Assembly: GCA_017656255.1 (NCBI GenBank)
Contig: JACDOE010000010.1
Coordinates: 36,400-100,399, forward strand
Reading direction: 5' to 3'
DNA length: 64,000 nt
From: Bacillaceae bacterium
Lineage (GTDB): Bacteria > Bacillota > Bacilli > JACDOE01
Every line of letters begins with the position of its first letter. Within the stretch, counting starts at the first letter, position 1. A model generated the notes under the pieces. That model saw only the letters and a list, made by a program, of their open reading frames with translations, was not told the origin of the DNA and ran no database searches. Shown piece by piece: positions 2,676-59,864 of this stretch. Both the position numbers and the translations under genes were made by a program.

Positions 2676-2826
2676 TACGCTTACCTCCTTTTACTAAATG
2701 GAATGTATGACGCATAAAATAAACATGTATGATATAGTTATAATATTCAGAATTTTATCCACCTTCATTGTATACCGGTTAGACTCAAGAAAACCATTCC
2801 CGAAAAAAGGGGGGTGAAATGTGTCG

Positions 2827-3498
2827 ATGAACACGGATAACATGAGGCCTTACGTTTCTGAAGAACCTCTGGAAAAATTGAAGGAGATGATGCGGACCAG
2901 CCTGGAGCTTTTTCCGTTTCAGAGAGCCTCACTTTTTACATATTCTCCACTGACACAGGAGGCTCAGGGACTATTGGCGGCAACGCCCTGCGGCATTTTC
3001 TCCATGGAACATATCAAAGAAGATGTCCGCTCCATTCCCCTGGTTGAAATGGCGATTAAACAAAAAAAGGCGCAATTCGCCGTTATTTCCAGGTCCACTT
3101 TTCTTTTTCCTGAGAAATATATAGAGGCTTTTTCTCTTTCTTCCCTGCTGGTGGTCCCCCTGTGTGATCAGCATGCCGTGACCGGCTGTGTGCTGGCCGA
3201 TCGTTTTAGTCGGGACCAGGCCATCGATGATGTCCTGATCGGGAAGGTTGAACGGTACTTTAATCATGAGGTAAAAAAGATGATCGGTCGGGAGGAACCG
3301 GTCTGCAAATTGAGCCGGCGGGAGAGGGAAATCCTGTACTGGTTCTCCCGGGGACTGGGGACGAAGGAAGTGGCGGACCGCATCCGGATCAGTGAATATA
3401 CGGTGCGGGATTATACGAAGTCCTGTATGCGAAAACTGGGGGCGAAAAACCGGACGGAAGCGGTGGCGATTGCGCTACGGGAGAGGATGATTGATTAA
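2827..3498 (+). CDS. LuxR/GerE-family HTH transcriptional regulator with N-terminal sensory (GAF-like) domain
   Basis: C-terminal 'LSRREREILYWFSRGLGTKEVADRIRISEYTVRDYTKSCMRKLGAKNRTEAVAIA' is a LuxR-type HTH. I chose the ATG at 2827 over the GTG at 2821 because it sits 9 nt after GGGGGTGA. Confidence 0.8.
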   Translation: MNTDNMRPYVSEEPLEKLKEMMRTSLELFPFQRASLFTYSPLTQEAQGLLAATPCGIFSMEHIKEDVRSIPLVEMAIKQKKAQFAVISRSTFLFPEKYIEAFSLSSLLVVPLCDQHAVTGCVLADRFSRDQAIDDVLIGKVERYFNHEVKKMIGREEPVCKLSRREREILYWFSRGLGTKEVADRIRISEYTVRDYTKSCMRKLGAKNRTEAVAIALRERMID

Positions 3499-3503
3499 AT
3501 GAA

Positions 3504-3533
3504 AAAGAGGACGTATGTCGTCCCCTTCTTTGA
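3504..3533. terminator. bidirectional rho-independent terminator between the LuxR-family gene and the sigK 3' fragment
   Basis: 'aagaGGACGtatgtCGTCCccttcttt'. On the minus strand the stem is followed by a 'ctcttttt' run, 15-40 nt after the sigK-fragment stop codon. Confidence 0.6.
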
Positions 3534-3544: not shown

Positions 3545-3920
3545 TTATTTTCGTTCCGGATGTTTGCGGTAAAATTCATGCAGCAGCTTCATCAAGGCCC
3601 TTTTTTCAATCCGGGAGACATAGGAACGTGAAATCCCCAGCTCTCTGGCAATTTCCCGCTGCGTCTTTTCTTCTCCCGATTCAAGCCCGAACCGGCCGAT
3701 GATCACCTCCTTTTCTCTTTTATCCAGCACGTGAATGTTTTTGTAGATCTTGCTTCGTTCGATTTTGAATTCCACTTTGTCGATGACTTCGTTGGCGTCT
3801 GTTCCGAGGATATCCATCAGGCTGATTTCGTTACCTTCTTTGTCGGTGCCGATTGGATCGTGGAGGGAAACGTCTTTGCGGGTTTTTTTGAGGGAGCGCA
3901 GGTGCATGAGGATTTCATTT
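3545..3920 (-). pseudogene. sigK: sigK 3' fragment (codons 122-245 plus stop); direct repeat of 8150-8525
   Basis: 376 bp that match the 3' part of the intact sigK except for one base (3551 t versus 8156 g, a synonymous Arg codon). Homology stops abruptly at 3920|3921. There is no upstream sigK sequence. Confidence 0.9.
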
Positions 3921-3941
3921 CTAAAGTCAATATTTGAGCTA

Positions 3942-3965
3942 TAAATTTGTTATATGAATGTTTAT
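3942..3965. repeat. direct repeat flanking the methyltransferase gene (partner at 4841-4861)
   Basis: 'taaatttgttatatgaatgtttat' versus 'taaatttatatgaatgtttat'. A 15-nt exact core 'tatatgaatgtttat' lies at 3951-3965 and 4847-4861. Confidence 0.6.
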
Positions 3966-4024
3966 TCTCTTTCTTTAAAAAAATCTATAATAAAAACTAT
4001 TATAAGTTTCATATACTCACTAAC

Positions 4025-4801
4025 TTATTTCACTGCCTTCCATATTGTCCATCTATCTTTTTCGACTATATTTTTTTCTATATTAATTGACTTATCTATA
4101 TATTTTATTAGTTTATCCAATTCTTTATCATCTATTTCATATAAAATGCTTCTTCCTGTTCTATTCCTTAAATCTTTAAATAATTCCTCTTTCGTTTCAT
4201 GTACCTTTCTTATTTCCCATAACTTAACTTCTATAACATCTCTGAATCCAACATATTTAAGGGATTCAATAACAGTTTGTCCATTATGACGTCGATCAAT
4301 TTCTTTTTCAATTAGTCTGGGGAAAAGTTTAAAAAAATATCCTCTAATATGAGTTTCGTCCCCTTCTAATAAGCAATCTTCAGGGGTACGGTCTTGAACA
4401 ATATAATATCCATCTTTCTTTAATAATCTATATGCTTCTTTGAAACAAGCATATAAGTCATTAATATGATGTATTAATGCTCTTTCAAGTAATAAATCAA
4501 AACAGTCGCTTTCTAAATCAGTATCAAAAGCATTTCCATACTTAAAAGATATGTTTTTATATTCCTTACAGTTTTCTTCAGCTTCTTTAAGTATAGCTTT
4601 TGAAAAATCAACACCAGTAACGGAAGGTACACCCATATCCGAAAGTGCTTTACAATATATTCCACCACCACAACCGACATCTAAAGCTTTAGAAACATTT
4701 TCGATTGGTACAAGTTTTTTAATTGCTTCTATCCATGATTTGTCTGCCTTTCGTGTTGAATAAGTCTTGCTGTTTTTCTTATTATGAAAATCTATACCCA
4801 T
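4025..4801 (-). CDS. class I SAM-dependent methyltransferase
   Basis: Motif I is 'ALDVGCGGGIYCKAL'. I chose the ATG at 4801 (MGIDFHNKK...) because it sits 7 nt after GAGGAG; the longer ORF reaches 4816. Confidence 0.8.
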   Translation of the reverse strand: MGIDFHNKKNSKTYSTRKADKSWIEAIKKLVPIENVSKALDVGCGGGIYCKALSDMGVPSVTGVDFSKAILKEAEENCKEYKNISFKYGNAFDTDLESDCFDLLLERALIHHINDLYACFKEAYRLLKKDGYYIVQDRTPEDCLLEGDETHIRGYFFKLFPRLIEKEIDRRHNGQTVIESLKYVGFRDVIEVKLWEIRKVHETKEELFKDLRNRTGRSILYEIDDKELDKLIKYIDKSINIEKNIVEKDRWTIWKAVK

Positions 4802-4840
4802 GGTAAATCTCCTCATTCTATTGATTAAACTTTTATAGGG

Positions 4841-4861
4841 TAAATTTATATGAATGTTTAT
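4841..4861. repeat. direct repeat flanking the methyltransferase gene (partner at 3942-3965)
   Basis: See the feature at 3942-3965. Confidence 0.6.
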
Positions 4862-4926
4862 AATTTACCTCTTTAATTTTAAAACATACCACTAATGTTG
4901 CATAAATAGTTACAGAAAATCCAGAT

Positions 4927-5690
4927 TTATATGTTTGCGTGGAAATGGGCTAAAAAGCCAAATGCTAAAGTAAAATGTCCATTTAGAGTTGCAACGATAT
5001 AGATTTTCTTATGGACTACCTCGGATTTCCCATTGAATTTGGCGAACCATTTTTGAAAGGGATTTAATGTTTGTAACCAACGTTTGAAGAAGGGATTGCT
5101 TTGTTCTGTTTCCACGAGTAAACAATTTGTGATTAGGGCGGATTAAAGTCGGTTTTGAACCACCGTTTCCCATTTATACCATAAAAACCCTTTATTCAAA
5201 CATGTTGCTTAAACTATTTGAATAACTTAATTCCCCAACGAAACCAGTAGGTGTTACTAATCTGTTTAGCACTAATATCAAAGCGACTAGTAACGAATAT
5301 CTTTGCCTTGTGAGTCTACCGTTTCCACTAATTGAAATTCATTTTCGGTTCGCTTTACGTAGTTCCGATGACAAAGAGTCTAAGGAAATCGTTTTTATTT
5401 CAGATATAGCAAAGTGCTTGATTGTACAGTTCAACAACGGAATTTTTCTTGAGTCGTGAAGCAAAAGAAAATCCTTTAATAAGAAAAGCGATCAAAAAAC
5501 GTACATAGATTCTTTTTAGTCAATCAAAATCTCATGTTGCTAAAATTTGTTCACACGTTAAGAGTGATGATGACTTTCTCCGTAGATGGTACCGAAATCG
5601 ATAAATGCCAAACTTAAGTATAGTTTTACCCCTGCTTTTGTTTTTTGCGAAAGGATTCTCACTGGTAGTTTGTTAAATACATGTAGAATA
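4927..5690 (-). pseudogene. degenerate IS4-like DDE transposase remnant(s)
   Basis: Minus-strand frames are broken by many stops. They read '...ISNTYWFRWGIKLFK*FKQHV*IKGFYG...' (about 5165-5250) and 'NPFFKRWLQTLNPFQKWFAKFNGKS' (4990-5100). Both resemble the C-terminal Y-2-R-3-E-6-K / 'RWxIExxFKxLKQ' region of IS4-type transposases. Confidence 0.35.
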
Positions 5691-5932
5691 ATACTTGAAT
5701 TAATGATTTATAGATCAACTCATTTACCAAATAACTTGTCACATAGCGTTTTCCTTTCCTTTACTTTAGATTTGGATAGGGATCACCTATACTCTCCATT
5801 GTAAAGGATTTATAACACTTGCAGATCGAACATTCATTGTATTTTTAATACTCTGATTTAATTATTACAATACTAATACATAACAATCTGAATTATAAAT
5901 ATTATTCAAAGATTAACTTTGAAAGGTGCGTT

Positions 5933-7144
5933 TTATTTCATATCCAACTTACTGTTATACTTAATCGAGTCGGGAAGTGGAATATGCTCTACCTTAGGAA
6001 GAGATAAAAGACTTAGTAAACATAAACCCATAAATCCCAAGAATACATAGTGCGTATTCATAATCCCAGCCAAATACCCAGAAAGCAAGGCTGAAGAAAT
6101 CTTAGCAAATGATACCACAATTGACCGGAAACTAATCACGCGGCCCATTAACTCTTTAGGAGTGTTAATCTGAACCAGTGTCTGCATAGAAATCACATGA
6201 AATAGAATGAAGAATCCGAACCCGAACAAAGCAAAAACTGTAAACCAAACGTACCCATCAATTCCCATAAATAAGGAAAATACTACTAAACCAACTAAAG
6301 TTACCACACTAACTTTCTCTTTATATTTATATAATGCTTTTTCCACAACAAATCCACCCAATGATCCACCTAGTGTGAATGAAATGGTTATTATAGAAAA
6401 TAAAACGCTGGAACCTTTCATATCTCGTGCAACCATTGGAGCGAGTAGAGTATTTGTCATTTGATACCCTGCACTACTAATAGTAGCGAGGAAAAACAAG
6501 TATAACATTCCTCTTTTTTCATTTACAAACTTCCAACCAACTTTAATACCTTCAATAACGTCCATACTTTTACTTTGAATATTACGTCTATCTATTCGAC
6601 GAAGCAGTATAAAGAAAATTGATGATACCATAAAGGTTAATGCATTGATTGCAAAACAAATTTCTACTGATAAAATAGACATTACGATTCCTGCTATACC
6701 AGTACCAATCAATGCCATGACAAAATTAATTGAAGATGACTTAGAGATAACATAAACCATTTCTTCATCGCTGAATGATTCTCTAATTAACGTTTGAGAA
6801 GATGGCTTAAATACCAGATGACAAACTGCTAAAACAACTTGAAGAAGATAAAACATAACAATTGATATAGTATCTATAAAAATTAACAGAACAACAATAG
6901 ATACAGCTAACCCACGAATTAACTGAACAGCAACTGTTAACACTTTGGAGTCCTGATGGTCTGTAATTATTCCTACCCATGGTGCGAAAAATAAGGGAGG
7001 TAGGTAATTAATGGCGATTAATATTCCAAGGGACAGGGGACTTCCTGTAAGTTTTAAAACCAACCACATCAACGCTACCGATTGGAAACCATCTCCTAAA
7101 TTATTAATTGCTGAACCTAACAAATAAAAGAACTTATTTCGCAT
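5933..7144 (-). CDS. MFS transporter
   Basis: 403-aa ORF with about 12 hydrophobic helices and an MFS-like N-terminus ('LGDGFQSVALMWLVLKLTGSPLSLG'). GGAAGGG RBS upstream. Confidence 0.8.
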   Translation of the reverse strand: MRNKFFYLLGSAINNLGDGFQSVALMWLVLKLTGSPLSLGILIAINYLPPLFFAPWVGIITDHQDSKVLTVAVQLIRGLAVSIVVLLIFIDTISIVMFYLLQVVLAVCHLVFKPSSQTLIRESFSDEEMVYVISKSSSINFVMALIGTGIAGIVMSILSVEICFAINALTFMVSSIFFILLRRIDRRNIQSKSMDVIEGIKVGWKFVNEKRGMLYLFFLATISSAGYQMTNTLLAPMVARDMKGSSVLFSIITISFTLGGSLGGFVVEKALYKYKEKVSVVTLVGLVVFSLFMGIDGYVWFTVFALFGFGFFILFHVISMQTLVQINTPKELMGRVISFRSIVVSFAKISSALLSGYLAGIMNTHYVFLGFMGLCLLSLLSLPKVEHIPLPDSIKYNSKLDMK

Positions 7145-7308
7145 AGTTGTGCCCTTCCATTTTTTATTTTAACTGGAAAATCATTTTATTTAGAAACATT
7201 AAATCGAGGAGGAATCGAAAAATAACATTCAAAAACACACTCTCTAAAATATATCCTTAAACTGTTGCTATTCGAATTCCTCCTCTGACATTCATGAAGT
7301 GAAGTGTT

Positions 7309-8083
7309 TTATTGTCTTCGTAATGAAAGGTTAGATAACTTAACGAAGCGTTTATATTTAAGAATAGTATCTAATACATCGCAAAGAATTAACATATTAG
7401 ACTCTTCCCCTGGAAAGTCACCCCAACTATCGTCATCGTTGCGAATGCTCATTAACCATTTGAAACCTTTTTCAATAGTGTTATGCCAAGAATAATCATC
7501 AAGGAGTTCACTCGCTAATATTAATGCTCGAATACTGTCACAAGTGTGGTCAACATTCATGTTATCGTAATGTCCTTCAGGATGTTGAGTCTTAACCAAG
7601 TATTGAACTGCTTTCTTAGAAGCTTTAACACCTTTCTTATCATATCCAAGAGTCTTTTGTAATAAGTGTGCTGTAACACAAACTGGTGTTTCATACTTTT
7701 CTTTATATTCCCATTCACCATCCTTACCCTGTCTTTCTATAATAAACTCCATAGCTTTGTTGTAAGGTTCTTCTACCATGTTTCTAATACGTTGTGGTAT
7801 ATCTGGAAGCATTCTAGCGAACATCAATGTACCGGCGCTTACACTAACAGCATCATAGAGTCCCCACTTATCATCCCACAAAGTCCCATCCTCTTTTTGT
7901 TGAGTGATTAACCAGGATAACCCATTATAAATTGCATTATCAAATCGCTCATTCCTCTGAGACAATGCATTATTAGCACGTAGAAGCATTTGTGTAGAAA
8001 ACGCAGTTTTTCTTACATGGCTTTTAATTTCCTTAGTGGTATTTCCCCAGCCACCATCCTCATGTGGGATAGAGCCCCATCTG
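7309..8083 (-). pseudogene. 5'-truncated prenyltransferase / squalene-hopene-cyclase-repeat (alpha-alpha toroid) protein
   Basis: Repeated 'DG.W' motifs are present ('HEDGGWGN', 'QKEDGTLWDDKWG', 'RQGKDGEWEY', 'TQHPEGHYDN', 'RNDDDSWGDF'). The frame stays open up to 8083 with no start codon until 7989, so the N-terminus appears to be missing at the segment boundary. Confidence 0.55.
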
Positions 8084-8149
8084 AATTAACAGGGTCTGGG
8101 GTTTACACAGAAAAATTGACAGACCCTCCCCTTATTTTGACGTGTGCTT

Positions 8150-8525
8150 TTATTTGCGTTCCGGATGTTTGCGGTAAAATTCATGCAGCAGCTTCATCAA
8201 GGCCCTTTTTTCAATCCGGGAGACATAGGAACGTGAAATCCCCAGCTCTCTGGCAATTTCCCGCTGCGTCTTTTCTTCTCCCGATTCAAGCCCGAACCGG
8301 CCGATGATCACCTCCTTTTCTCTTTTATCCAGCACGTGAATGTTTTTGTAGATCTTGCTTCGTTCGATTTTGAATTCCACTTTGTCGATGACTTCGTTGG
8401 CGTCTGTTCCGAGGATATCCATCAGGCTGATTTCGTTACCTTCTTTGTCGGTGCCGATTGGATCGTGGAGGGAAACGTCTTTGCGGGTTTTTTTGAGGGA
8501 GCGCAGGTGCATGAGGATTTCATTT
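8150..8525. repeat. 376-bp direct repeat (partner at 3545-3920)
   Basis: Offset is exactly 4605 bp. I found one mismatch. Confidence 0.9.
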
Positions 8526-8887
8526 TCAATACATCTTGCTGCGTATGTGGCCAATTTGGTCCCTTTGTTTACCTTGTAACTTTCGATGGCCTTGATCAGC
8601 CCGATGGTGCCGATGGAGATCAAGTCTTCGCTGTCTTCGCCGGTGTTTTCAAATTTCTTGACGATATGCGCCACCAGGCGAAGGTTATGCTCGATCAGCA
8701 TATTCCGTGCCTCAACATCTCCCTGTTCCATCAAGCGTAAGTATTTCTCCTCGTCTTCTTCCGACAGTGGCTGGGGAAAGGCATTGTTCTTGACGTAGGA
8801 GACGAACAGAATCAGTTCTTTGTACAGAAGCGCCAGTAACCCGAGCAGTCCAGACACCCGATCCCACCTCCAGGAATAGTGCTTCAT
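8150..8887 (-). CDS. sigK: RNA polymerase sporulation sigma factor SigK (pro-sigma-K), intact copy
   Basis: 245 aa with a pro-sequence plus '[20 protein letters not shown]', '[37 protein letters not shown]' and '[24 protein letters not shown]'. Co-linear with B. subtilis SigK over its whole length. Confidence 0.93.
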
Positions 8888-8925
8888 TTATGCCTATTCC
8901 CTTCTGGGCTTGTTTGTGTCTGTAC
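8656..8925. repeat. 270-bp direct repeat (partner at 15292-15561)
   Basis: Offset is exactly 6636 bp. I found four mismatches: three are synonymous codon changes and one lies in the 5' UTR. The repeat covers codons 1-77 plus 38 bp upstream of the ATG. Confidence 0.9.
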
Positions 8926-9010
8926 TAAAAAAACTGTAATCAGTTTTATTTGCTTTTTTAAATTCTTTAAGTAAGTATCATATAACACCATAACAGACAG
9001 TAAAAGACAA

Positions 9011-9034
9011 GATCCCGGTTTGAATACCGAGATC
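9011..9034 (-). terminator. terminator after the last gene of the segment-B operon
   Basis: The minus strand reads 'GATCTCGGTattcaaACCGGGATCttgtctttt', starting 28 nt downstream of the stop at 9062. Confidence 0.55.
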
Positions 9035-9061
9035 ATCACAGTAACTTAATACATCTCTAAT

Positions 9062-9562
9062 TTAATTAACCTTCTGATCATAAAACGCAATGGCCTCATC
9101 TATTAATTTTTCAAGATGTGGTTTAAGTTCAATTGCTTTTGATTTAGCTTTGTGTGTGTCATAGCCTAAATCAATTAAAAATGCATATGTACTAACCATT
9201 TCCAAAAACTGAGAACTTTCCTTGACCATAGAATTCAAAAGATCAGTATTAATTTTTAAAGAGTATCCTCCATCAGCTTCTAAAGTTTCTTTAAATGCTT
9301 TCCCCTTCTTAGTAATAGAGTACACATAAGCTTCATCGTTTTTTGATTCAGTTAGAAATCCTTGTTGTACTAAAGTATTTATCTCTTCTTGAAGTTCTGC
9401 AGAATATGGGCCATAAAAGTGGTATTCATACTTAAATGGTAAATCTAATCCGGCTGATTCAAGCAAATGCACCATCTTTTGTACCTTTTTTCGACCGTGT
9501 ACCTTTTTAATTTCATCAAACAGACTCAATAAACTGTAGGCTCCTTCGAACAATTCAATCAC
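9062..9562 (-). CDS. YwgA / SocA(Panacea, DUF4065)-like protein
   Basis: 166 aa. 'KVQKMVHLLESAG...YHFYGPYSAELQEEINTLVQQGFL' resembles the YwgA-type partner of YwfO-type HD proteins. It overlaps the upstream HD gene by 4 nt. Confidence 0.55.
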   Translation of the reverse strand: MIELFEGAYSLLSLFDEIKKVHGRKKVQKMVHLLESAGLDLPFKYEYHFYGPYSAELQEEINTLVQQGFLTESKNDEAYVYSITKKGKAFKETLEADGGYSLKINTDLLNSMVKESSQFLEMVSTYAFLIDLGYDTHKAKSKAIELKPHLEKLIDEAIAFYDQKVN

Positions 9563-10869
9563 CCTCCAAAAATTTCATTTTTATAATCTTCGGGCATAAA
9601 GTATCTATCTATAGAGATTTTTTTATTTCTAATTCCATTAATTATATCAGAGATCACTGATAATTCTGTACCATTTCCGTTATTATCAAATAAAATTATT
9701 TGCTCTGAAGCTTCACGTTCGCCTTCTTTTTCATCCGTTTTGGGCGTATGAAAAATATAGGGATCTTTGTATGAACTACTTTTAGCTTCGTCCATTAGAA
9801 AGTAGTACTTAATTGGAATGCCTTTTTTGTTTGAATATTCGAATACCTCCTGCCAAAACTCCATAGGACTTTTGTCTGGAATGGAAACTGACTTAAAAAA
9901 CTTTCTTCTTAATAGTCGAGTACAAAGATCGCTCAATATCGAATCTTGGTGTCTACTCCATATCGAAATAAAATACCAAATCGTATTATCTGTTAAATTA
10001 ATATAATTATGTAGTGTTTCTTTAAGGTTGCCTTTTTCTGATAAAATCCGAATCAAATCTTCAGGAAATTCAATCTCCTGTTTTTCTTGAAAAATCTCAT
10101 AAGCTCTATTAAATATTTTATCTACTAGTAGTTCAGCGCTCCGAGTTGTTTTGTGAAAATACACATTCATATACATATAGTACCTTGCCATAACAAAATC
10201 TTCGGCTATACTAATACCTTTTTCAAGATCTAACCCTACCTCAATTTGACCATTATATTCACCGATTCTCAATACATTTATCATCCATTCAAGATCGAAT
10301 GAACCGTAGCCTGCACCAGTCATTTTAGAGTCTCTTAATAAATAATCAATTCTATCTGTATCTAACTGACTTGATAACAATTTCACAAGAGCTTTGGATC
10401 TATGAGTTCGTTGAATAACATCAGCAACTTCATCTGGGTCCACATTGTACTTTTTGAGAACGCTATTGATTTCTGTATCCCCACGTATTATTTCTATTGT
10501 CCACTTTTCATGTCTAACGCCAGTTGTTTTTTCTAAAGCATGGGAAAAAGGGCCATGCCCAATATCATGTAGGAGTGCTGCAGTTAATGCTAACATTCTA
10601 TTATCAGCTAGCTCTTGAGAATATTGTTTGTATTGTTCATCCTTTAAGCTACATATCTTATTAATAAATCTTTTAGTTAAATGTGTCACACCAATAGAAT
10701 GAGCAAACCGAGTATGTTCGGCTCCTGGATATGTAAATGACGATAATCCAAGTTGTTTTATATGGCGTAGTCTTTGAAATTCTTGGGTATCTATTAATTC
10801 CAAAAGCAAAGCATCTGATTCTTTATCAAAATGAATAATATTATGTACGGGATCACGAATAGTTTTCAC
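9559..10869 (-). CDS. HD-domain dNTP triphosphohydrolase-like protein (SAMHD1 / EF1143 / YwfO family)
   Basis: 436 aa with 'IRDPVHNIIHF', 'FQRLRHIKQLGLSSFTYPGAEHTRFAHSIGV', 'LLHDIGHGPFSH' and 'DTDRIDYLLRDS'. These are hallmark motifs of the family. Confidence 0.8.
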   Translation of the reverse strand: MKTIRDPVHNIIHFDKESDALLLELIDTQEFQRLRHIKQLGLSSFTYPGAEHTRFAHSIGVTHLTKRFINKICSLKDEQYKQYSQELADNRMLALTAALLHDIGHGPFSHALEKTTGVRHEKWTIEIIRGDTEINSVLKKYNVDPDEVADVIQRTHRSKALVKLLSSQLDTDRIDYLLRDSKMTGAGYGSFDLEWMINVLRIGEYNGQIEVGLDLEKGISIAEDFVMARYYMYMNVYFHKTTRSAELLVDKIFNRAYEIFQEKQEIEFPEDLIRILSEKGNLKETLHNYINLTDNTIWYFISIWSRHQDSILSDLCTRLLRRKFFKSVSIPDKSPMEFWQEVFEYSNKKGIPIKYYFLMDEAKSSSYKDPYIFHTPKTDEKEGEREASEQIILFDNNGNGTELSVISDIINGIRNKKISIDRYFMPEDYKNEIFGG

Positions 10870-10917
10870 ATTATCACCCCATTATAAAACTCTTTAATTA
10901 TTATCTAACTCGACAAA

Positions 10918-11556
10918 CTAGAATGCATTGTGTTTTCCCATTTGTCTCAGTACTTCTAATCTATCTAAACAACTTGTACATAATAAGCAATGTCGATCCC
11001 CTAAAGCATTACAAGAAAAGGTTTTTTCTATTGGTACTGACATGTTAATTGCCTCATCAATTACAATCTGTCTGTCTAAACCCACAAATGGAGTGATCAA
11101 TTCAAATTCATGAAGTGATTCTGAAAGAGTAGTAGATATGCTCTCTATAAATGACTTACTTGTATCCTTATAAGATCTTGACCCAGTCACACCTATTGCT
11201 ATTTTTCGTATATCGTTTTTATACGCATATGCTCCAGCCAAAGATATTAAAATCATATTTCTGTTCGGAAAAAACTCGGTATTAAACCATTCTTCTGCTG
11301 AATATCCTGATTGAGGACTATCCCCCACAAGTGATCCAGAGCCAAGGTGCTTCATATTAGAAATGTCTAAAAATAAGACTTTATCCGCATACTCATTTCC
11401 TATTATTGATTTAATTGCTCTAATTTCGCCAGACACTGTTACTTGCCCATAGTTAATATGAATAGGGAATATATCGTATTTTCTTTTTCGCAACCAATAA
11501 TAAAGAACAACAGAATCAATGCCCCCTGATAATAATAATACGACTTTTTTTCTCAT
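10918..11556 (-). CDS. QueC-like PP-loop ATPase (7-cyano-7-deazaguanine synthase family, divergent)
   Basis: 212 aa with the 'LLLSGGIDS' PP-loop, 'INYGQ', 'FFPNRNMILISLAG' and a C-terminal Cys cluster 'SCNALGDRHCLLCTSCLDR'. Co-linear with QueC. Its start overlaps the upstream stop (ATGA). Confidence 0.75.
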   Translation of the reverse strand: MRKKVVLLLSGGIDSVVLYYWLRKRKYDIFPIHINYGQVTVSGEIRAIKSIIGNEYADKVLFLDISNMKHLGSGSLVGDSPQSGYSAEEWFNTEFFPNRNMILISLAGAYAYKNDIRKIAIGVTGSRSYKDTSKSFIESISTTLSESLHEFELITPFVGLDRQIVIDEAINMSVPIEKTFSCNALGDRHCLLCTSCLDRLEVLRQMGKHNAF

Positions 11557-12818
11557 AATATATACAACTTCTCTATTAATTCTTCAATAGATTCAACTAT
11601 AACATTACAACCATAAACTAGCATATTATTTAATTCAAACTGTGAGGTTTTTAAAGCAATTATAGGGATACCTCTTTCATAAGCAAACCCAACTTCAAAA
11701 CATGTACCCGGATCATTATGATCTAACAATGCTACCACAACATCAGATTGTCTTATCAAGTCAAGATCTTTATCAAAAATATTTTTGCGTTCATCCATTG
11801 GTGTGTCTTTCTTTATAATTCCATTTTCTCGTAGAGGTGATAAAACTTTAAATCCACAATTTTCTATTCTATTCGTTATTAATTTAACCCAATCCTCTTC
11901 CTGTTTACTAAAAAATGGACCTGCCAAGTAAACGCTTTTGTCTGAATTACCAGATACAACAATTTCTCTTCTGTCCATATCTTCTTCTACCGCTACTCTA
12001 TTTATTATATTTTCAATTGTAAAATTCTCAATGAAGTTAGCAGCAACACAACTTGCTAACCTCGTACTATACTCAATATCCCTCGTCCTGAGAAATGTAG
12101 CAGCTAATGCACCACCAAAAACATCACCAGAGCCTAAAGTGCATTTAACATTACTTTTATACGCCGGTATATGTATAGTCTTTCCTTCGTTTACTAGAAT
12201 ACAACCTTTATATCCTCTTTTTACGATTATGTACTTAGGCCCCATATGAATTAACTTTTCAATAGCATTCTCTAAAGTATTTGCTTGAGTTAATAATAAA
12301 ACCTCTTCCTCATTTACTAAAAGTACAGATACATATTCTAAAATTTTTCTAGCATCATGAATTGATTTGCTATTTGGTTTTGGGTCAAGAAAAACAGGAA
12401 TATTTTTTTCACATGCTTGCTTACATAAATCTTCCGGAAGCGAGTGATCCACTGGAAATACTAAGATACCCTCACATTCATCACTTAGCTGTGGATTATA
12501 TTCAATACCGATTTTAACATCTATCAAAGGAGTACTTTTTTTAACTTCATAAGCTTTATAACCTTTTACTAAATATTTTGGCAGACAATAATTTTCCATA
12601 TATTTAGCACTCGAAAAACTTACACCCATTAAGTTCCATATTTTTATACTATATGAATCGATTTCGGGCCCGTATACTGTCATAAACTCAACATTGATGC
12701 CTTGTTTTGCTGCAGATATTGATGCATATAAACCGGCTCCCCCAAATCTATCGATAATCTTTGTATCATAATCTAATAATAAGTCAATACCTATCTCTCC
12801 GTATACAGCAATATTCAT
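11553..12818 (-). CDS. fusion protein: PfkB-family sugar/nucleoside kinase + nucleoside 2-deoxyribosyltransferase-like domain
   Basis: The N-terminal part has 'GGAGLYASISAAKQG' and 'TLGSGDVFGGALAA' (PfkB signatures). The C-terminal part has 'VYLAGPFFS' and 'DPGTCFEVGFAYERGIPIIAL' (NDT/DNPH1-type motifs). I chose the start at 12818 (MNIAVYG...) because it sits 5 nt after GTGAGGTGA. Confidence 0.75.
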   Translation of the reverse strand: MNIAVYGEIGIDLLLDYDTKIIDRFGGAGLYASISAAKQGINVEFMTVYGPEIDSYSIKIWNLMGVSFSSAKYMENYCLPKYLVKGYKAYEVKKSTPLIDVKIGIEYNPQLSDECEGILVFPVDHSLPEDLCKQACEKNIPVFLDPKPNSKSIHDARKILEYVSVLLVNEEEVLLLTQANTLENAIEKLIHMGPKYIIVKRGYKGCILVNEGKTIHIPAYKSNVKCTLGSGDVFGGALAATFLRTRDIEYSTRLASCVAANFIENFTIENIINRVAVEEDMDRREIVVSGNSDKSVYLAGPFFSKQEEDWVKLITNRIENCGFKVLSPLRENGIIKKDTPMDERKNIFDKDLDLIRQSDVVVALLDHNDPGTCFEVGFAYERGIPIIALKTSQFELNNMLVYGCNVIVESIEELIEKLYIL

Positions 12819-12823
12819 CGGTA

Positions 12824-13534
12824 TCACCTCACGAATTGAAAGTATCCGTTTCTCCCTAATATCCATAATAAATAGTCCATCTTACCTAAAGGCACTCCAA
12901 TCTTCAAGCAAATAATTCGTAATGCTTCTTCATATTGTAAGTAAACCTTTTCTGTTATGTTTTTAGGAATATTATATCCTAAGTAACCAAGAAATCTTAG
13001 TATATGGATATCCAGTACTGCACAATCATTATTAAATCCTGTATTCCTTAATAGCCAACTAGCTGATTTCATGCCAATACCTGGACATTCACATAGCCAT
13101 GTTCTAGCATCAAATGAATTAAGTTCATTAAGTTTATCAAATAATCTCCAGTGACAGTTCTCCCAAAGCCAATATCCAGCCTTGGATATAACCTTAGGCT
13201 TCGTTTCCACAAATCTATATTTTCTGAACTGGCCGTTACAAGTAATGGGATAAAACTGCTTTTTTGATAACTCTCTCTTTATTACATTTTCAATTATATA
13301 TAAGTTAGATATAGAGGAATAATATTTTGCTTCGATTAACCCTTTATTCTTTAATACATGTAAACCTGATTTGTTTAACTCATAACTGATTCCAAATCCT
13401 CCAAGAACTACGAAAAAAAATTCATCTATAACTTGTTCATTAGATTTTGAAACAAACGAAAACTCTCTTTCAATTGCAATACCATAAGTTTCCCAAAGTT
13501 CTTTTAACACATTGAATGCTCTAGTATTTTCCAT
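12824..13534 (-). CDS. Ogg2/AGOG-like HhH-GPD DNA glycosylase (N-glycosylase/DNA lyase type)
   Basis: 236 aa. 'CPGIGMKSASWLLRNTGFNNDCAVLDIHILRFL' shows a helix-hairpin-helix with the Lys and downstream Asp arrangement of bifunctional Ogg2-type enzymes. Confidence 0.65.
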   Translation of the reverse strand: MENTRAFNVLKELWETYGIAIEREFSFVSKSNEQVIDEFFFVVLGGFGISYELNKSGLHVLKNKGLIEAKYYSSISNLYIIENVIKRELSKKQFYPITCNGQFRKYRFVETKPKVISKAGYWLWENCHWRLFDKLNELNSFDARTWLCECPGIGMKSASWLLRNTGFNNDCAVLDIHILRFLGYLGYNIPKNITEKVYLQYEEALRIICLKIGVPLGKMDYLLWILGRNGYFQFVR

Positions 13535-13540
13535 ATCACT

Positions 13541-13891
13541 TTACGCCTCTACCTCTACTGTAACCTTCGGGTCATGTTGATTCCCTTCTTTTTTTATTAC
13601 AACCCCCTTGTATTCCCACCCTTCTTCAATACATTTTAAGAGCCAACTGTATTTTGGAGGAACGACCCCTATACTAAAATTATCTTTTTCTTTTTTTACT
13701 TCCATGACCGGCAATGTATCATCATTTCTTAAGATAATAGACACTTCATCATTCACAGAAACATTTCTCCACACTGCTTTTTGATTCTCATTAACAATTA
13801 ATAAAATTGTAACTTTTTCACCGCATCTATTTACTGTTTTTCCAGTTCCTCCTCCAAAACCACCAAATGATGAAAAGCCACCACTTCCCAT
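13541..13891 (-). CDS. small protein with Gly/Phe/Ser-rich N-terminus and beta-rich body (possibly HIRAN-like); first gene of the operon
   Basis: 116 aa beginning 'MGSGGFSSFGGFGGGTGK'. Strong AAGGAGGA RBS. Its stop lies 6 nt before the next start. No family was recognised with confidence. Confidence 0.55.
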   Translation of the reverse strand: MGSGGFSSFGGFGGGTGKTVNRCGEKVTILLIVNENQKAVWRNVSVNDEVSIILRNDDTLPVMEVKKEKDNFSIGVVPPKYSWLLKCIEEGWEYKGVVIKKEGNQHDPKVTVEVEA

Positions 13892-14024
13892 ATAAATCCT
13901 CCTTACTAGTTATTTTTTTTTTTGCAATCTTTATAATACTCCAAAACTATTTATATTTAAATTAAATGAAATCTCATTTTGATCACTTCTTTTGTAAATT
14001 GTCTAATGTGCTTAGAATATGTTA

Positions 14025-14860
14025 TTATTTCTCTAGACCAAATTCTCTTTTTAATTTATTAAAGTCATATTCTTTTATTTCGATTGGGATACTAAGGTTC
14101 TTAAGTTTTGACATCAAATCGCTTTTATTAACAACAGGTTTGTCCTCGTAAACAATTGCGAATATCAATTTAAAATTATTTATTGAAGCACTGTCTAAAT
14201 TTTTAGCTGTCTGATATAACGATTCAATAACATTACGAGTTAACTTACCTCGTTTATTATATTTTATCTCAAATCCATAAGTTGAATTATCAGTTTTACT
14301 AATACCATCAATTTCAATTAACTTATCAGAAGATTTAAATGCCATGTGTCTCTGAATAGGAATTTTAAATTCTTGTTCAAGTTTCCTAAACACCAAATCT
14401 TCAGCTAAAAAGTATTGCATTTTGGGATCAACAGTCACTTTGGAAGGCATGTCTAACGTACCCGCTTTATCCTCTTCAATATTATTATCACTAGAAGATT
14501 CTTCAAGCTCTGCTTCTGCTTTCTTTCTTTGTGAATCACTAGTTAATTTTAAGAAATTCCCTTCATCCTTAAAATCACTTGGCGCATATAATTTGGTATG
14601 ATAAAAATCACAAGTCTATAAAATGTAAATAAAACAAGTAAAGGGAAAATTACTATGAAACACACAAGGAACCATTTTTGAGAAACATTTAATTCCGAAC
14701 TAAATTGAAGTACTAATGCTGCTATTCCATAAATTAGTGATATAAATAATGCAATGATACCTAAGGGGTTCTTTGTAAAACCTGATGCACTTCTCGTGAA
14801 TTCTATTATTATCGCTCACCTTCCTTGTAAAAATTTTAAAATGATGCCAACGTTACTCAT
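14025..14860 (-). pseudogene. disrupted membrane-anchored PD-(D/E)xK-like protein
   Basis: The ATG at 14860 begins 'MSNVGIILKFLQGR'. An in-frame TGA follows at 14816-14818. Two hydrophobic helices come next, then a frame change at a T-run near 14600-14610. After that the frame runs into the 141-aa ORF 14025-14450, which has 'IEIDGIS...YGFEIKY'. Confidence 0.5.
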
Positions 14861-15283
14861 TCTTAATACCAATCCAAATCATATCCGTGGACAAAAATGG
14901 CTGGAAAATATAAAACATGTCTGAGTATCAAAAAATTAATCTTTTAATATAACATTCTTCTCTTTTTTCTCATTAACTCCTCCTAGCTTTTGTGCACACC
15001 AATATATTAAAAAACAATCTTCAAAACTATACTTACTCCTTTTAGATCAAAGATCAAAAAATCCCTAACAAAAAAATTAGTGTTTATTCTCAATTGTATT
15101 TCGGTAAAAAAACAGATAATCCCTTTTAGGACAAATAAAAAATAATTAGTAAGGATATCACTCTATACTATATACTTATCTGAATTAATAGGTTTAATTG
15201 GTTTTATAATTATCTTCTTTTAGCTATTTGAAACCCCCCCTGACCCAGCACCACACCAGCATTCTTCCGACATCGCTTCGTGT

Positions 15284-15523
15284 TCACAACCTCTTGACGA
15301 TATGCGCCACCAGGCGAAGGTTATGTTCGATCAGCATATTTCGCGCCTCAACATCTCCCTGTTCCATCAAGCGTAAGTATTTCTCCTCGTCTTCTTCCGA
15401 CAGTGGCTGGGGAAAGGCATTGTTCTTGACGTAGGAGACGAACAGAATCAGTTCTTTGTACAGAAGCGCCAGTAACCCGAGCAGTCCAGACACCCGATCC
15501 CACCTCCAGGAATAGTGCTTCAT
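15284..15523 (-). pseudogene. sigK: sigK 5' fragment (codons 1-77, then 'RL' and a stop)
   Basis: The 79-aa ORF matches intact SigK through '...[10 protein letters not shown]'. Homology ends at 15292. Confidence 0.9.
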
Positions 15524-15561
15524 TTATGCCTATTCCCTTTTGGGCTTGTTTGTGTCTGTAC
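15292..15561. repeat. 270-bp direct repeat (partner at 8656-8925)
   Basis: See the feature at 8656-8925. Confidence 0.9.
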
Positions 15562-15669
15562 CGGAGATTTGTTTTTGCTCTTTTGTTAAAAACTGTTTAA
15601 GCATTTTTAACACTAGCGTTCTCAAATAAATTTAATGTTTCTGTCCTTCACTTCTTTTTTCTACAAGTA

Positions 15670-15710
15670 AACAAACATCCCGCAATACCTTAATAGTAAT
15701 GCGGGATATT
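15670..15710 (-). terminator. terminator of the Hen1-Pnkp operon
   Basis: 'ATCCCGCA-15 nt loop-TGCGGGAT', followed on the minus strand by 'gtttgttt'. Confidence 0.5.
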
Positions 15711-15742
15711 ATGAGAACCTTTTAGACATACCCTTCTTTACC

Positions 15743-18346: not shown

Positions 18347-19618
18347 TTACTTTTCACCTCTTGCTTTAACCAAAACTCCCTGAGTGGTATAAACCCCGTC
18401 TACACAATCGCCAATACTTAAATGATGAATCTCAAAATCTCGTTCATCAAAAATCTCACTTATCCATTGTTTAAATTCATTTGTCCCCATTTCCCATTTA
18501 TGATCTTCATGCCGATATTCATCCAGGGAATAATACTTATTAAAATCATGATTTGGAGTCGTTATAATAATGGATTCAAAATGAATGTCATCAAGAATTG
18601 TTAAAATTAGTTTTTTAGCCTCATCCTTCTCCATGTGTTCAATGACTTCTGTAAGGATGACATCAACTAATTCCCCATTGTAATCTTCAATAAAATCCTC
18701 AATGGATCCATAAGTTAATATATTTTCAATACCCCTTTTTTTAATTCTTGCATCCAGCGAACGAATGATATCTTCATCAATGTCAATGGCATAATAGTAT
18801 TTGTCACCTATACTTTCGGAGAAAAGAAAGGCATAATAACCTTCCCCACATCCAACATCAACAATTGGTTTGTTGAAGGGTAATAACTTTTTTATCGCTT
18901 CTCTTCTTTGGTGAGCTGTATGTCCGTAAGAAAAGTTTATGTCATACCTTTGTGTTTCTTCCAGGCTTTCTTTAAATTTTGAAAATAATTTCCTGCTGGT
19001 AAGTATGTTTCGTGCAAACAGATACCTTATAAAAAACGGAGCATCCAGGACTTTAATTTGATTAACATACTTTTCAATCAAACTATCTGTAACATCAAGG
19101 TATTCGTTACCTATTAAAGATAAAAATAAAAACAATAGATTAGCTGTATTCAATAAATCATAAATACTTTTGTTCGTTTTGATTTTAATTGAATAGCTCT
19201 TGTGAGATTGATGAATCATTTCGATAGAGAAATCCTCAAAATGTTTGCTAAAAAAATCTATATATCTTGGTAGTGTGATATGAACCATATTCACAAATAA
19301 TTCATTTTCATATCCTTCAAGATCATTATCATACCGGTTTTTGATTGTGGAATTAAAGAATTCTGTCATTGCGTTTAATGGAAAAAGAGGTGTATTATAT
19401 CTTGAAACATTTAGATATTCAAAGCTTTCTTCTTTATGTTGCTTGTAAGATATCTCGTTGTCAGCGTCCTTAAAATATATATTGTAGGTTTGATCATCAG
19501 AATACCAGCCAAACGCAATTCCCTGTCTGACTGTACGCAACATCATGCCTGAAGCTGGATTTTTGCGTATTAAAAAAGAAAAGTGCGGATTCGTTGATTT
19601 TAACTGAACAATAGCCAT
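18347..19618 (-). CDS. hen1: Hen1 3'-terminal RNA ribose 2'-O-methyltransferase
   Basis: 423 aa. The N-terminal 'FSFLIRKNPASGMMLRTVRQGIAFGWY' is Hen1-type, and the C-terminal SAM motif is 'IVDVGCGEGYY'. The stop codon abuts the pnkp start codon. Confidence 0.8.
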   Translation of the reverse strand: MAIVQLKSTNPHFSFLIRKNPASGMMLRTVRQGIAFGWYSDDQTYNIYFKDADNEISYKQHKEESFEYLNVSRYNTPLFPLNAMTEFFNSTIKNRYDNDLEGYENELFVNMVHITLPRYIDFFSKHFEDFSIEMIHQSHKSYSIKIKTNKSIYDLLNTANLLFLFLSLIGNEYLDVTDSLIEKYVNQIKVLDAPFFIRYLFARNILTSRKLFSKFKESLEETQRYDINFSYGHTAHQRREAIKKLLPFNKPIVDVGCGEGYYAFLFSESIGDKYYYAIDIDEDIIRSLDARIKKRGIENILTYGSIEDFIEDYNGELVDVILTEVIEHMEKDEAKKLILTILDDIHFESIIITTPNHDFNKYYSLDEYRHEDHKWEMGTNEFKQWISEIFDERDFEIHHLSIGDCVDGVYTTQGVLVKARGEK

Positions 19619-19773
19619 CTACTTTCACTCCTGTTATTTCCCTCAATCATTTTCCAATAAACCAATAAACTTTAATTGCTATACTAACCTGATTCCCAGT
19701 TCAAAAGAATAATCAAATAAAATATGAAAAGAGGAAAAATGTAGTCCCCTTTTCCTAGTGCTTGGTAAAAATA

Positions 19774-26864: not shown

Positions 26865-26898
26865 TGTTACACCCATACTCGCGGGTATGTTTGTAACA
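26865..26898. repeat. REP-like palindromic intergenic element, copy 2
   Basis: 'tgttacacccatactcgcgggtatgtttgtaaca'. Confidence 0.6.
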
Positions 26899-59829: not shown

Positions 59830-59864
59830 GTGAGTTCCCCCCTTTTTACACACTTTTATCCTAA

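Follow-up and report, generated by a model that had tools for sequence, protein, structure and literature searches.

An uninterrupted sigK that appears to keep its promoter, set between two islands that look like fossil intervening elements

Our analysis suggests that the intact sigK gene in the window (the whole 64-kb stretch of DNA that was analysed) has not been orphaned from its regulation. Judged by conservation, on which the promoter call rests, the intact gene and a truncated 5' copy of it each carry the whole conserved promoter module, and the intact gene would be a self-contained transcription unit that has lost only its terminator. The extra sigK pieces in the window would be the scars of two decayed elements. 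As neither of the two islands beside the gene, here called cargo A and cargo B, encodes a recombinase, both resemble fossil intervening elements, with a gene joined up again between them. We give this explanation as a whole, including the fossil origin, a probability of roughly 0.7. The original prediction held that the intact gene had been severed from a control region now sitting in front of the truncated copy, and offered a cargo-derived promoter, read-through across 6.4 kb of cargo or recombination between repeats as ways to express it. Since both copies carry the promoter module, no rearrangement, cargo promoter or long read-through should be needed for sigK expression in the mother cell; there would be no regulatory paradox, and none of the three rescue routes has to be invoked.

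The sigK frame is uninterrupted: a complete gene of 235 aa is present, and the fragments at 15292-15561 and 3545-3920 are extra copies (Table 1). Repeat A links the orphan 3' fragment (3545-3920) to the 3' part of the intact gene (8150-8525). It measures 376 nt and not the 300 nt first estimated, its copies are identical at 375/376 nt (1 mismatch), and it ends 0-3 nt past the sigK stop codon; the orphan fragment matches aa 112-235 of SigK at 100% (tblastn). Repeat B (8656-8925 and 15292-15561) is identical at 266/270 nt, its four mismatches being three synonymous differences out of three in the coding part (8690, 8705 and 8708) and one in the promoter spacer (8904). When both repeats are pooled, all four coding differences are synonymous (4/4, P 0.003-0.04), and each of the five differences lies no more than 53 nt from a repeat edge (P about 0.02, an estimate). 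The truncated copy would encode pro-sigma-K residues 1-67 followed by Arg-Leu-stop, with the stop codon at 15284-15286. Repeat B identity stops abruptly at 8925/8926, and 5' of -68 the sequences of the two copies are unlike; diverged homology past the repeat edges is not significant, as 8% of shuffles score equally well. No additional sigK fragments, promoter boxes or att half-sites were found elsewhere in the 64-kb window.

Table 1. Features of the sigK locus, by position in the window
Feature	Position	Strand	Description
Intrinsic terminator 3' of the 3' fragment, strong	3502-3530	minus	12-bp stem and U-tract, -15.3 kcal/mol
Orphan sigK 3' fragment (repeat A, copy 2)	3545-3920	minus	codon 111/112 to stop codon
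Site-Y attR, element-side half-site	3920-3930	minus	TTGACTTTAGA; TTGAC[AT]TTAG motif
Cargo A	3921-8149	minus	low-GC island, no recombinase gene (Pfam); GC3 0.18-0.29
Cargo A, methyltransferase	4025-4816		
Cargo A, MFS transporter	5933-7144		
Cargo A, prenyltransferase/squalene-cyclase-like protein	7309-7989		226 aa
Weak hairpin 3' of intact sigK	8091-8127	minus	8-bp stem, 21-nt loop, no U-tract
sigK, intact CDS	8150-8857	minus	mosaic of three parts; 235 aa, GTG start, stop 8150-8152
Intact sigK, repeat-A part	8150-8525		
Intact sigK, single-copy middle	8526-8655		
Intact sigK, repeat-B part	8656-8857		
Repeat B, copy 1	8656-8925	minus	intact gene, positions -68 to codon 67
Ribosome-binding site	8865-8871	minus	GGAGGTG, 7 nt 5' of GTG 8857; conserved in aligned homologues
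sigK promoter core, intact copy (predicted)	8890-8925	minus	box GTACAGACAC 8925-8916, 17-nt spacer, AATAGGCAT at -10 position 8898-8890
Cargo B	8926-15291	minus	low-GC island, no recombinase gene; seven-gene operon ending at terminator 9011-9034
Cargo B, products			141 aa, 116 aa, Ogg-type glycosylase, PfkB kinase-nucleoside 2-deoxyribosyltransferase fusion, QueC-like, HD/dGTPase-like, 166 aa
Terminator-like hairpin closing the cargo-B operon	9011-9034	minus	fold z -3.95
Site-X attL	15271-15298	minus	core GTCAAGAG 15298-15291, element-side arm GTTGTGAACACGAAGCGATG 15290-15271
Truncated sigK (repeat B, copy 2, 15292-15561)	15284-15561	minus	complete promoter, ribosome-binding site, GTG at 15493
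DNA 5' of the truncated copy	15562-21600	minus	PNKP terminator hairpin 15674-15710, PNKP-Hen1 RNA-repair pair 15743-19618, Spo0M-like gene 19774-21105

In all aligned homologues the start codon lies 6-9 nt after a GGAGGTG/GGGGGTG ribosome-binding site, and SigK homologues are 232-238 aa long, against 245 aa under the ATG reading of the gene studied here. Because of the conserved ribosome-binding site and these lengths, sigK very probably does not start at the ATG at 8887, and its start would be the GTG at 8857. The upstream stretch common to both copies would therefore be 68 nt long and not 38; the original prediction had placed the end of homology correctly at 8925/8926, and its shorter figure came from counting from the ATG inside the promoter, 2 nt 3' of the -10 element. 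The 245-aa SigK of the public annotation, which starts at the ATG, probably opens within the promoter as well.

The 68-nt shared stretch opens exactly at the box GTACAGACAC, whose copies (8925-8916 and 15561-15552) lie at the repeat edge. We take this box to be the -35 region together with a putative SpoIIID site, from its presumed resemblance to the SpoIIID consensus. Upstream of sigK, 25 of 31 Bacilli carry a G[GT]ACAG[AG]CAC box, mostly with a CATA-type -10 element and a 17-nt spacer, and nothing 5' of the box is conserved in the sigK upstream regions of any of the 31 relatives. The same order of box, 17-nt spacer and -10 position, 5' of the ribosome-binding site and start, is found here; at the -10 position (AATAGGCAT), A replaces the C at the first position of the CATA seen in most relatives. 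The combined box and -10 pattern has two matches in the 64-kb window, at these two boxes, where 0.00 were expected. A promoter within the stretch shared by both copies was the observation that the original prediction itself had named as decisive against it, and such a conserved module is what the 68 nt contain computationally. In B. subtilis, spoIVCB is regulated by SpoIIID (PMC517825).

It is very unlikely, in our judgement, that the intact gene is cut off from its control region and needs a sigma-A promoter in the cargo, read-through from cargo B or recombination between the 270-nt repeats. This reading starts from real observations, as the sequences 5' of 8925 do differ between the two copies, a sigma-A-like TTTACT-16-TATGAT is indeed present at 9004-8977, and no terminator is predicted on the minus strand between 15284 and 9034, so that read-through is physically possible as far as 9011-9034. 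However, the whole conserved promoter module falls within the shared 68 nt, with no conservation 5' of the box in any relative. Moreover, sigma-A-like hexamer pairs occur at chance frequency (55 in 12.7 kb vs 54.3 in shuffles), which leaves the pair at 9004-8977 no statistical weight, and a good terminator separates cargo B from the intact gene, namely the hairpin at 9011-9034 that the original prediction had rightly recognised (fold z -3.95). The DNA from 15562 onwards, previously read as native upstream sequence, is itself foreign-looking: it belongs to a low-GC tract shared with the cargo (GC3 0.28-0.31, vs 0.54-0.66 for host genes and sigK), and by sequence 15562-21600 bears no sign of a conserved sigK control region.

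What the intact gene has lost is its terminator. The hairpin 3' of it (8091-8127) is no credible terminator, with a fold z of -0.46 and 55 of 200 shuffles folding equally well. This agrees with the weak stem and 21-nt loop described earlier; the gene beyond it that had been called truncated is ORF 7309-7989, which is uncut by the junction, with ~160 nt of non-coding DNA in between. The good terminator does accompany the 3' fragment, as had been claimed: for the hairpin at 3502-3530, with its 12-bp stem and U-tract, the fold z is -5.9 and none of 200 shuffles folds equally well. It is probably bidirectional, because a GerE/LuxR-family gene (2821-3498) converges on it. Since the intact copy has no terminator, sigK transcripts probably continue into cargo A, and they may extend to the old terminator at 3502-3530. 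Similarly, in the mother cell the duplicated promoter probably drives expression of a 69-aa pro-sigma-K stub and, through transcripts that run on past it, of cargo B.

Each island has one canonical junction, an X-type attL in cargo B and a Y-type attR in cargo A. From comparison with other loci, junction 15291/15292 is the attL of a widespread serine-recombinase element that targets sigK (site X). Its arm GTTGTGAACACGAAGCGATG is the reverse complement of the ACATCGNTTYGTGTYCACAAC arm that adjoins sigK 3' parts in 10 other loci and has a single match in the 64-kb window, at its junction; the same attL architecture, with an arm differing by 2-3 nt, also occurs in four metagenome contigs (L117/L127, L119 and L122). 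By the same kind of comparison, junction 3920/3921 is a skin-type (site Y) attR: TTGAC[AT]TTAG adjoins sigK 3' parts (from aa 112/113) in IMG/VR proviruses L092, L093, L095, L100 and L115, and the half-site matches once in 64 kb (0.05 expected), exactly at the junction. The partner junctions, 8925/8926 and 8149/8150, have no convincing element arm, and sites X and Y of the intact gene both read as normal attB. No free attP of the X-type element was found in IMG/VR. As a side observation, both non-att junctions were considered as secondary recombinase sites: the stop-codon junction reads GCAAATAA-N8-GTCAA, to be compared with GAAAATGA-N9-GTCAA in a canonical attL (L104), and at the promoter-box junction nothing comparable was seen.

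In canonical elements of both types, a Resolvase-Recombinase-Zn_ribbon gene lies beside attR, and none is present in the window; cargo A keeps ~13 nt of the canonical attR arm, and the recombinase that adjoins it in canonical elements is absent. Large serine recombinase domains (Resolvase, Recombinase and Zn_ribbon_recom) were found by Pfam in none of the cargo ORFs, and tblastx with six-frame inspection of the cargo gave no trace of a recombinase. The best E value of tblastn with five canonical recombinases over the 64 kb was about 1, and the non-coding stretches 4817-5932 and 14451-15291 hold no recombinase pseudogenes. Neither island encodes replication or recombination functions. Islands that have one att site each and no recombinase would not be expected to excise in the mother cell. 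PADLOC made no call of a defence system in cargo B, and no relatives of the cargo genes were found among ~110 collected loci.

The composition of the cargo (GC3 0.18-0.31) also differs from that of the intact gene (0.60-0.66 in all three of its parts). The idea that intact sigK is a foreign copy homogenised by gene conversion was rejected, as its single-copy middle is equally host-like in GC3. The co-orientation of cargo and sigK is uninformative, as the minus strand carries almost every gene from 0.5 to 29 kb.

We propose that two distinct large-serine-recombinase elements hit sigK, one at site X (codon about 66/67) and one at site Y (codon 111/112, skin-type), and that each was reduced to a recombinase-less island with one att site, attL for cargo B and attR for cargo A. 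At the far end of each island, a copy of a sigK segment would make the gene whole again. Probably, a derivative that had excised aberrantly, without the recombinase but with the adjacent sigK segment, integrated by homology (Campbell-type) to give the healed arrangement, and gene conversion then probably held the interiors of the repeats identical. The synonymous differences, their clustering at the edges and the dN/dS of a Paenibacillus locus with three sigK fragments (L033, below) would all point to an origin of the copies from separate functional alleles. Against this account, the non-att junctions coincide exactly with functional edges, one falling where the promoter box begins and the other 0-3 nt past the stop codon, and random illegitimate joining explains this poorly. 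The short attR arm of cargo A and the missing recombinase beside it also weigh against the account.

Campbell-type integration by homology is known from defective transducing derivatives of the lambda dgal/dbio type and from single-crossover integration of plasmids. As in such products, direct repeats of a gene segment flank the insert in the window, with one complete and one truncated copy, and homologous recombination across the repeats could revert the structure. The flanking repeats are B for cargo B and A for cargo A, and in each case the complete copy is the one closest to the remainder of the gene. The likeness is one of architecture, in a window that has two independent insertions in one gene, and the k-mer graph is compatible with circular donor forms and shows none directly.

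An origin in place, by tandem duplication of a sigK segment with part of the element and then precise excision of one element copy by the recombinase, is less likely than Campbell-type integration, and we consider it unlikely even though it would yield the observed order exactly for both islands and would account for the loss of the recombinase and of one att site as well as for the 98.5-99.7% identity between copies. A pseudogene free since its duplication would not be expected to have 4/4 coding differences synonymous, nor to have its differences clustered at the repeat edges, and for cargo A the recombinase should lie beside the retained attR, where it is absent. This origin also leaves unexplained the arrays of Paenibacillus, where strong purifying selection acted on the copies as they diverged (dS about 0.5, dN/dS 0.02-0.03). 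In cultured Paenibacillus isolates, locus L006 runs from intact sigK through cargo and attR to a 3' fragment with terminator, while L011 has two sigK fragments and L033 three; the L033 copies differ by dS 0.46-0.51 and dN 0.011-0.015 (dN/dS 0.02-0.03). Between-copy similarity in L006 and L033 collapses right at the stop codon.

That collapse could also be read as design. Some integrative elements restore the 3' end of their target, with tRNA genes or rlmH/orfX as typical targets, and as in the window the gene is functional after insertion, a displaced fragment remains and fragment arrays are possible (three copies in L033). If the sigK segments were regular parts of an attachment region, site-specific integration would rebuild sigK by design, the boundaries of the repeats would fall on functional edges (promoter box, stop codon) as they do here, and the architecture would recur, as it does in several genomes. 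However, this seems highly improbable. Target-restoring elements have a short att core, whereas the repeats here span 270-376 nt, and the restoring segment lies in no recognisable attP: the junctions beside it are without an element-type arm, attB in the intact gene is plain and normal at X and Y, and neither an integrase nor the recombinase is present. A site that combines a host arm with an element arm is an attL or attR, and neither is an integration substrate for a large serine recombinase. Moreover, the cargo-B attL arm runs into a stop (Arg-Leu-stop), and the gene is not restored there.

The source is a metagenome-assembled contig, and the segment order hinges on the path that the assembler took through the 270-nt and 376-nt repeats. 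We regard it as distinctly unlikely that the locus is an assembly path artefact or a population mixture, in which the chromosomal sigK would be plain, with upstream DNA and a terminator of its own, and cargo B with repeat B, and cargo A with repeat A, would be circles apart from it or come from another strain assembled together with it. Such a reading draws on the source being a MAG and on the k=31 Logan contigs, which end in every repeat. Repeat A has no internal phasing variant, its sole variant lying 7 nt from an edge, and its paths are indistinguishable from sequence; in repeat B, phasing must cross 196 identical nt. Logan contig L116 stops at 8096, short of the 8149/8150 junction and of the repeat starting at 8150, which would fit a branch or a gap in coverage, and the MAG contig is the one source for that junction. 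However, L116 and L082 belong to an independent assembly of the same run, made from k-mers: L116 spans 3891-8096 and confirms the cargo-A attR junction, and L082 (window 15321-8874, 100% identity) confirms both cargo-B junctions. The joining of cargo B to the promoter box and both att junctions are thus borne out independently. L081 ties the DNA 5' of the truncated copy to host DNA out to 29618. In addition, circles of 4.6 kb or 6.6 kb could not persist with no replication or recombination function in the islands, and matching integrated architecture is found in the cultured Paenibacillus isolates. Even as separate elements they would still carry sigK segments, and the biology would be little altered.

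The nearest SigK proteins are 83-86% identical, and their genes lie in a PBP-sigK-Fur neighbourhood that has no synteny with the window; a scan of a genome collection for SigK gave nothing closer than 80% among the matches listed. Because the nearest relatives have a different neighbourhood, the ancestral flanks cannot be reconstructed.

Developmentally programmed DNA rearrangement has its textbook case in elements that insert into sigK. The present locus and those of Paenibacillus point to a different outcome, with healing of the gene, loss of the recombinase, and cargo locked beside orphan att sites and displaced fragments. In B. subtilis, the skin element (SpoIVCA/Skr) splits sigK into spoIVCB and spoIIIC (PMC6957869, PMC517825). 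Cargo A resembles skin in its target, the gene of the mother-cell sigma factor at codon about 111-113, and its arm at 3920-3930 matches skin-type proviruses. In contrast to skin, sigK is unsplit here, there is neither recombinase nor directionality factor, attR alone survives, and developmental excision would be neither needed nor possible. Island IV of 'B. cereus var. anthracis' CI is a 22-kb, non-prophage element that intervenes in sigK with type I R-M cargo (PMC2901330). Cargo B is similar to it in carrying accessory or defence-like and not phage cargo, at a sigK site other than that of B. subtilis (PMC2901330); however, island IV has a SpoIVCA-like recombinase beside the 5' fragment and interrupts sigK, whereas in cargo B the recombinase is lost and sigK is whole. 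The site-X elements of Paenibacillus and uncultured Bacillota (L032-L034, L039, L107, L110, L117, L119 and L122) share with the window the crossover region GTCAARA (codons 66-67) and the palindromic arm ACATCGNTTYGTGTYCACAAC / GTTGTGRACACRAANCGATGT. In the canonical L107 and L110 the serine recombinase gene ends at attR, whereas the window keeps the attL end alone.

Healing of this kind would offer a testable route for the domestication of sigK-inserted elements, and an att half-site adjoining a sigK fragment could serve as a signature of past insertions where sigK looks uninterrupted. It is also tempting to speculate, though we hold this to be quite doubtful, that recombinase-less islands spread and persist through a captured sigK segment that serves as their homology arm, inserting by homologous recombination and leaving sigK whole. 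The duplicated sigK promoter of the cargo-B form would then turn on a defence-like or nucleoside-modifying operon in the mother cell late in sporulation, and the 3' arrays of Paenibacillus would be footprints of repeated rounds. If so, sigK would be a general landing pad where displaced ends accumulate, as at tRNA genes. As a minor observation on the two 3' ends in the window, AAATAAGGGGA and AAAGAAGGGGA lie at the same offset after the two sigK stop codons.

Every part of sigK in the window lies on the minus strand. Read in the direction of sigK, the locus starts with low-GC PNKP/Hen1 DNA, followed by a promoter with codons 1-67, cargo B (6.4 kb), a promoter with the complete gene, cargo A (4.2 kb), codons 112 to stop and, after this 3' fragment, a terminator and a convergent GerE-family gene. 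A tblastn search of the 64-kb window returned no further sigK-like sequence. The locus appears to be a healed sigK flanked by two fossil intervening elements. The gene is a known target of several large serine recombinase families, which insert at differing positions (PMC6957869, PMC5025042, PMC2901330, PMC13141910).

Features of the sigK locus (window coordinates)
Feature	Coordinates	Size	Remarks
Intact sigK ORF	3' end at 8150		minus strand
Repeat B (sigK 5' segment)	8656-8925 = 15292-15561	270 nt, 4 mismatches	5' end of the intact gene and truncated copy 6.6 kb upstream
Repeat A (sigK 3' segment)	8150-8525 = 3545-3920	376 nt, 1 mismatch	3' end of the intact gene and fragment 4.6 kb downstream
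sigK middle	8526-8655	130 nt	single-copy

In sigK orientation, the junction at 15291|15292 is ...ATCGTCAAGA|GGTTGTGAACACGAAGCGATGT. In ten other loci, ACATCGNTTYGTGTYCACAAC|GTCAAAAA precedes sigK 3' parts (from codons 60-66), and this arm, the element-side att sequence, equals the window's arm in reverse complement; combined, the two rebuild a palindromic attP with GTCAARA as its core. Scanning metagenome contigs for the window's junction motif returned four contigs, in all of which sigK codons 1-67/69 run into this core and then a 2- to 3-nt arm variant. The other junction, 3920|3921, reads ...ATATTGACTTTAG|AAATGAAATCC; a TTGAC[AT]TTAG half-site precedes sigK 3' parts (from codon 112/113) in five IMG/VR proviruses, and its inverted form follows a sigK 5' fragment in comparison locus L104. 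Both motifs, that of site X (codon ~66/67) and that of site Y (codon 111/112), occur once in the window, each at its own junction. Canonical elements at either site carry a Resolvase-Recombinase-Zn_ribbon gene ending ~20 nt before attR; five of these proteins gave no match to the window, and both cargo islands lack genes for recombinases, replication proteins and phage proteins. The att-junction matches and the missing recombinase lead us to read cargo B as the attL-side remnant of a site-X element, and cargo A as keeping just the last few attR-end bases of a site-Y (skin-type) element.

Cargo B itself is a compact seven-gene operon (9062-14450, minus) for two small unknown proteins, an Ogg-type DNA glycosylase, a PfkB kinase-nucleoside 2-deoxyribosyltransferase fusion, a QueC-like protein, an HD/dGTPase-like protein and a protein similar to the C-terminal region of DarG. 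No match in cargo B reached a curated cut-off and PADLOC called no system there; it is possible that the operon is a so far undescribed system for nucleoside or DNA modification, or for defence.

The original prediction held that the intact gene had been cut off from its control region, leaving this only in front of the truncated copy. We aligned the DNA preceding sigK in 29 Bacilli (among the genome-collection matches listed) and two nearer relatives, anchored at the start codon, which lies 6-9 nt past GGAGGTG/GGGGGTG in all of them; the window equivalent is the GTG at 8857, with GGAGGTG at 8865-8871. SigK homologues are 232-238 aa long, and 245 aa is found only in the public annotation of the window's own protein (P0001), which derives from the MAG. 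The single conserved upstream block, G[GT]ACAG[AG]CAC, is present in 25/31 regions, mostly followed, 17 nt further on, by a CATA-type -10 element. Across the 31 regions there is no conservation 5' of this box, and the two nearest relatives diverge completely immediately upstream of it. In the window, the box (GTACAGACAC, 8925-8916) starts at the very first base of repeat B, and AATAGGCAT occupies the -10 position (8898-8890); only the two sigK copies match the combined pattern in 64 kb (expected 0.00). The annotated ATG at 8887 (codon 8885-8887) follows the -10 element by 2 nt and so probably precedes the transcription start. As a lead only, the box would fit the SpoIIID consensus (WWRRACAR-Y) and is a putative SpoIIID site. 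In B. subtilis, SpoIIID activation of spoIVCB at footprinted sites is established (PMC517825).

With the conserved block inside the repeat, the control region, as far as conservation makes it recognisable, lies within the shared 68 nt ahead of both copies. The coordinates first proposed are accurate and the homology boundary at 8925|8926 is sharp when the repeats are compared, but the promoter part of the interpretation was wrong. The DNA upstream of the truncated copy, regarded as native, is not obviously so, having low GC3 like the cargo. The proposed TTTACT-16-TATGAT promoter does exist as a pair of motifs, but it is one of 55 such matches, against 54.3 in shuffled sequence. The terminator part was right: the hairpin ending the cargo operon (9011-9034) is real as a structure (fold z -3.95), no credible terminator follows the intact gene (z -0.46, U-tract missing) and a strong one follows the 3' fragment (12-bp stem and U-tract, z -5.9).

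We would thus expect sigK to be expressed from its own promoter and, as it lacks a terminator, its transcripts may extend across cargo A as far as 3502-3530, no other minus-strand terminator being predicted in between. From the second promoter copy we would expect expression of a 69-aa stub (15284-15493) and, possibly, read-through into cargo B up to 9011-9034. The truncated copy (15284-15561, minus) still has its promoter, ribosome-binding site and GTG start, and would encode the pro-sequence and pro-sigma-K residues to 67, then Arg-Leu-stop. Homologous recombination between the repeats could remove one or the other island, leaving behind a clean sigK, although it would not be required.

How did the duplicated segments arise? 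Large serine recombinases are not known to generate duplications as long as 270-376 nt, and the junctions beside the restoring segments lack the element arm; therefore, a secondary homology-based or illegitimate-joining event is required. We favour a route in which a recombinase-less, aberrantly excised derivative had captured the neighbouring sigK segment and entered an intact sigK through one homologous crossover, with gene conversion afterwards. All four coding differences between the window repeats are synonymous (P 0.003-0.007 with both copies free, 0.02-0.04 with one free), and the distance to a repeat edge is 7-53 nt for all five differences (estimated P ~0.02, sum of normalised edge distances), a pattern that gene conversion between resident repeats would be expected to leave. 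Tandem duplication followed by precise excision would also yield the segment order, but it fits less well with the synonymous-only differences and with the Paenibacillus arrays described below. Each non-att junction coincides exactly with a functional boundary: one is at the box's first base, the other 0-3 nt past the stop codon. The latter faintly resembles a Y-type secondary site in sequence (GCAAATAA-N8-GTCAA versus GAAAATGA-N9-GTCAA); similarity beyond the repeat edges is not significant.

Comparable architectures were found among 80 genome loci (among the matches listed). In Paenibacillus zeirhizosphaerae (L006), the order is intact sigK, 1.7-kb cargo, X-type arm, sigK 3' fragment (88% nucleotide identity) and good terminator; P. 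puldeungensis (L011) has two sigK fragments, and P. phyllosphaerae (L033) three 3' copies, two with the arm. The L033 copies have open frames, dS of 0.46-0.51 and dN of 0.011-0.015, which argues that they diverged as parts of working genes before coming to lie together; the window repeats carry a weaker version of this signal. In L033 (10001-18600), the tandemly spaced copies cover aa 62-230, 80-230 and 62-230 and are 89-91% identical (dN/dS 0.02-0.03), with the X-type arm before two and a terminator-like hairpin after 2/3. No sigK 5' part lies within 10 kb upstream of them, and the locus resembles an array of gene ends that were displaced. Two IMG/VR loci (L107, 2523-2765; L110, 3105-3344) hold sigK middle fragments (aa 64-144) directly downstream of a serine recombinase gene. 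Their matches end near aa 143-145, where sigK junctions occur in other IMG/VR proviruses, which suggests simultaneous interruption at site X and at a third site near codon 145.

Apart from the sigK pieces, GC is 0.30-0.35 from ~3900 to ~21600, against ~0.47-0.53 in the host; GC3 is 0.18-0.31 in all cargo genes and in PNKP, Hen1 and the Spo0M-like gene, and 0.54-0.66 in host genes and all three sigK parts. This tract (3921-21600) runs continuously through cargo A, cargo B and the PNKP-Hen1-Spo0M-like genes, with host-like composition only in the sigK pieces, and its host boundary near 21600 has no recognisable junction feature. The PNKP-Hen1 RNA-repair pair (15743-19618) sits within it, directly upstream of the truncated sigK. 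Many Bacillota loci share the deeply conserved order YceG-(methyltransferase)-peptidase U32-U32-PBP-sigK. The window keeps it (56225-62568) up to the PBP gene (56662-58458), with a convergent DUF3888 gene and a MerR-like gene in place of sigK. Lying 47 kb from the PBP gene, inside the low-GC tract, sigK has thus apparently moved in this lineage.

Run SRR13776092, assembled independently with k=31, gave contigs 100% identical to the window. They confirm that host DNA connects through PNKP to the 5' fragment (29618-15510), and they bear out the two ends of cargo B (15321-8874) and cargo A's attR end (8096-3891). As all of these contigs break within the repeats, the segment order depends on the MAG assembler, and repeat A cannot be phased from its sequence. 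An alternative assembly path may give a plain sigK plus cargo circles, but such circles would have no means of replication. The cargo-A contig (L116) ends at 8096, 53 nt before the stop-codon junction, which suggests a branch or a coverage gap in the sample at 8096-8097; the other contig ends checked at repeats lie 30 or 52 nt within the repeat. A second GTCAAT motif (8115-8120) lies beside the L116 end. Finally, a palindromic 38-46-nt sequence (TGTTACACCCATACCCGCGAGTATGTTTGTAACA...) occurs twice, at 487-536 and 26865-26910, 26.3 kb apart and with 85-95% identity.
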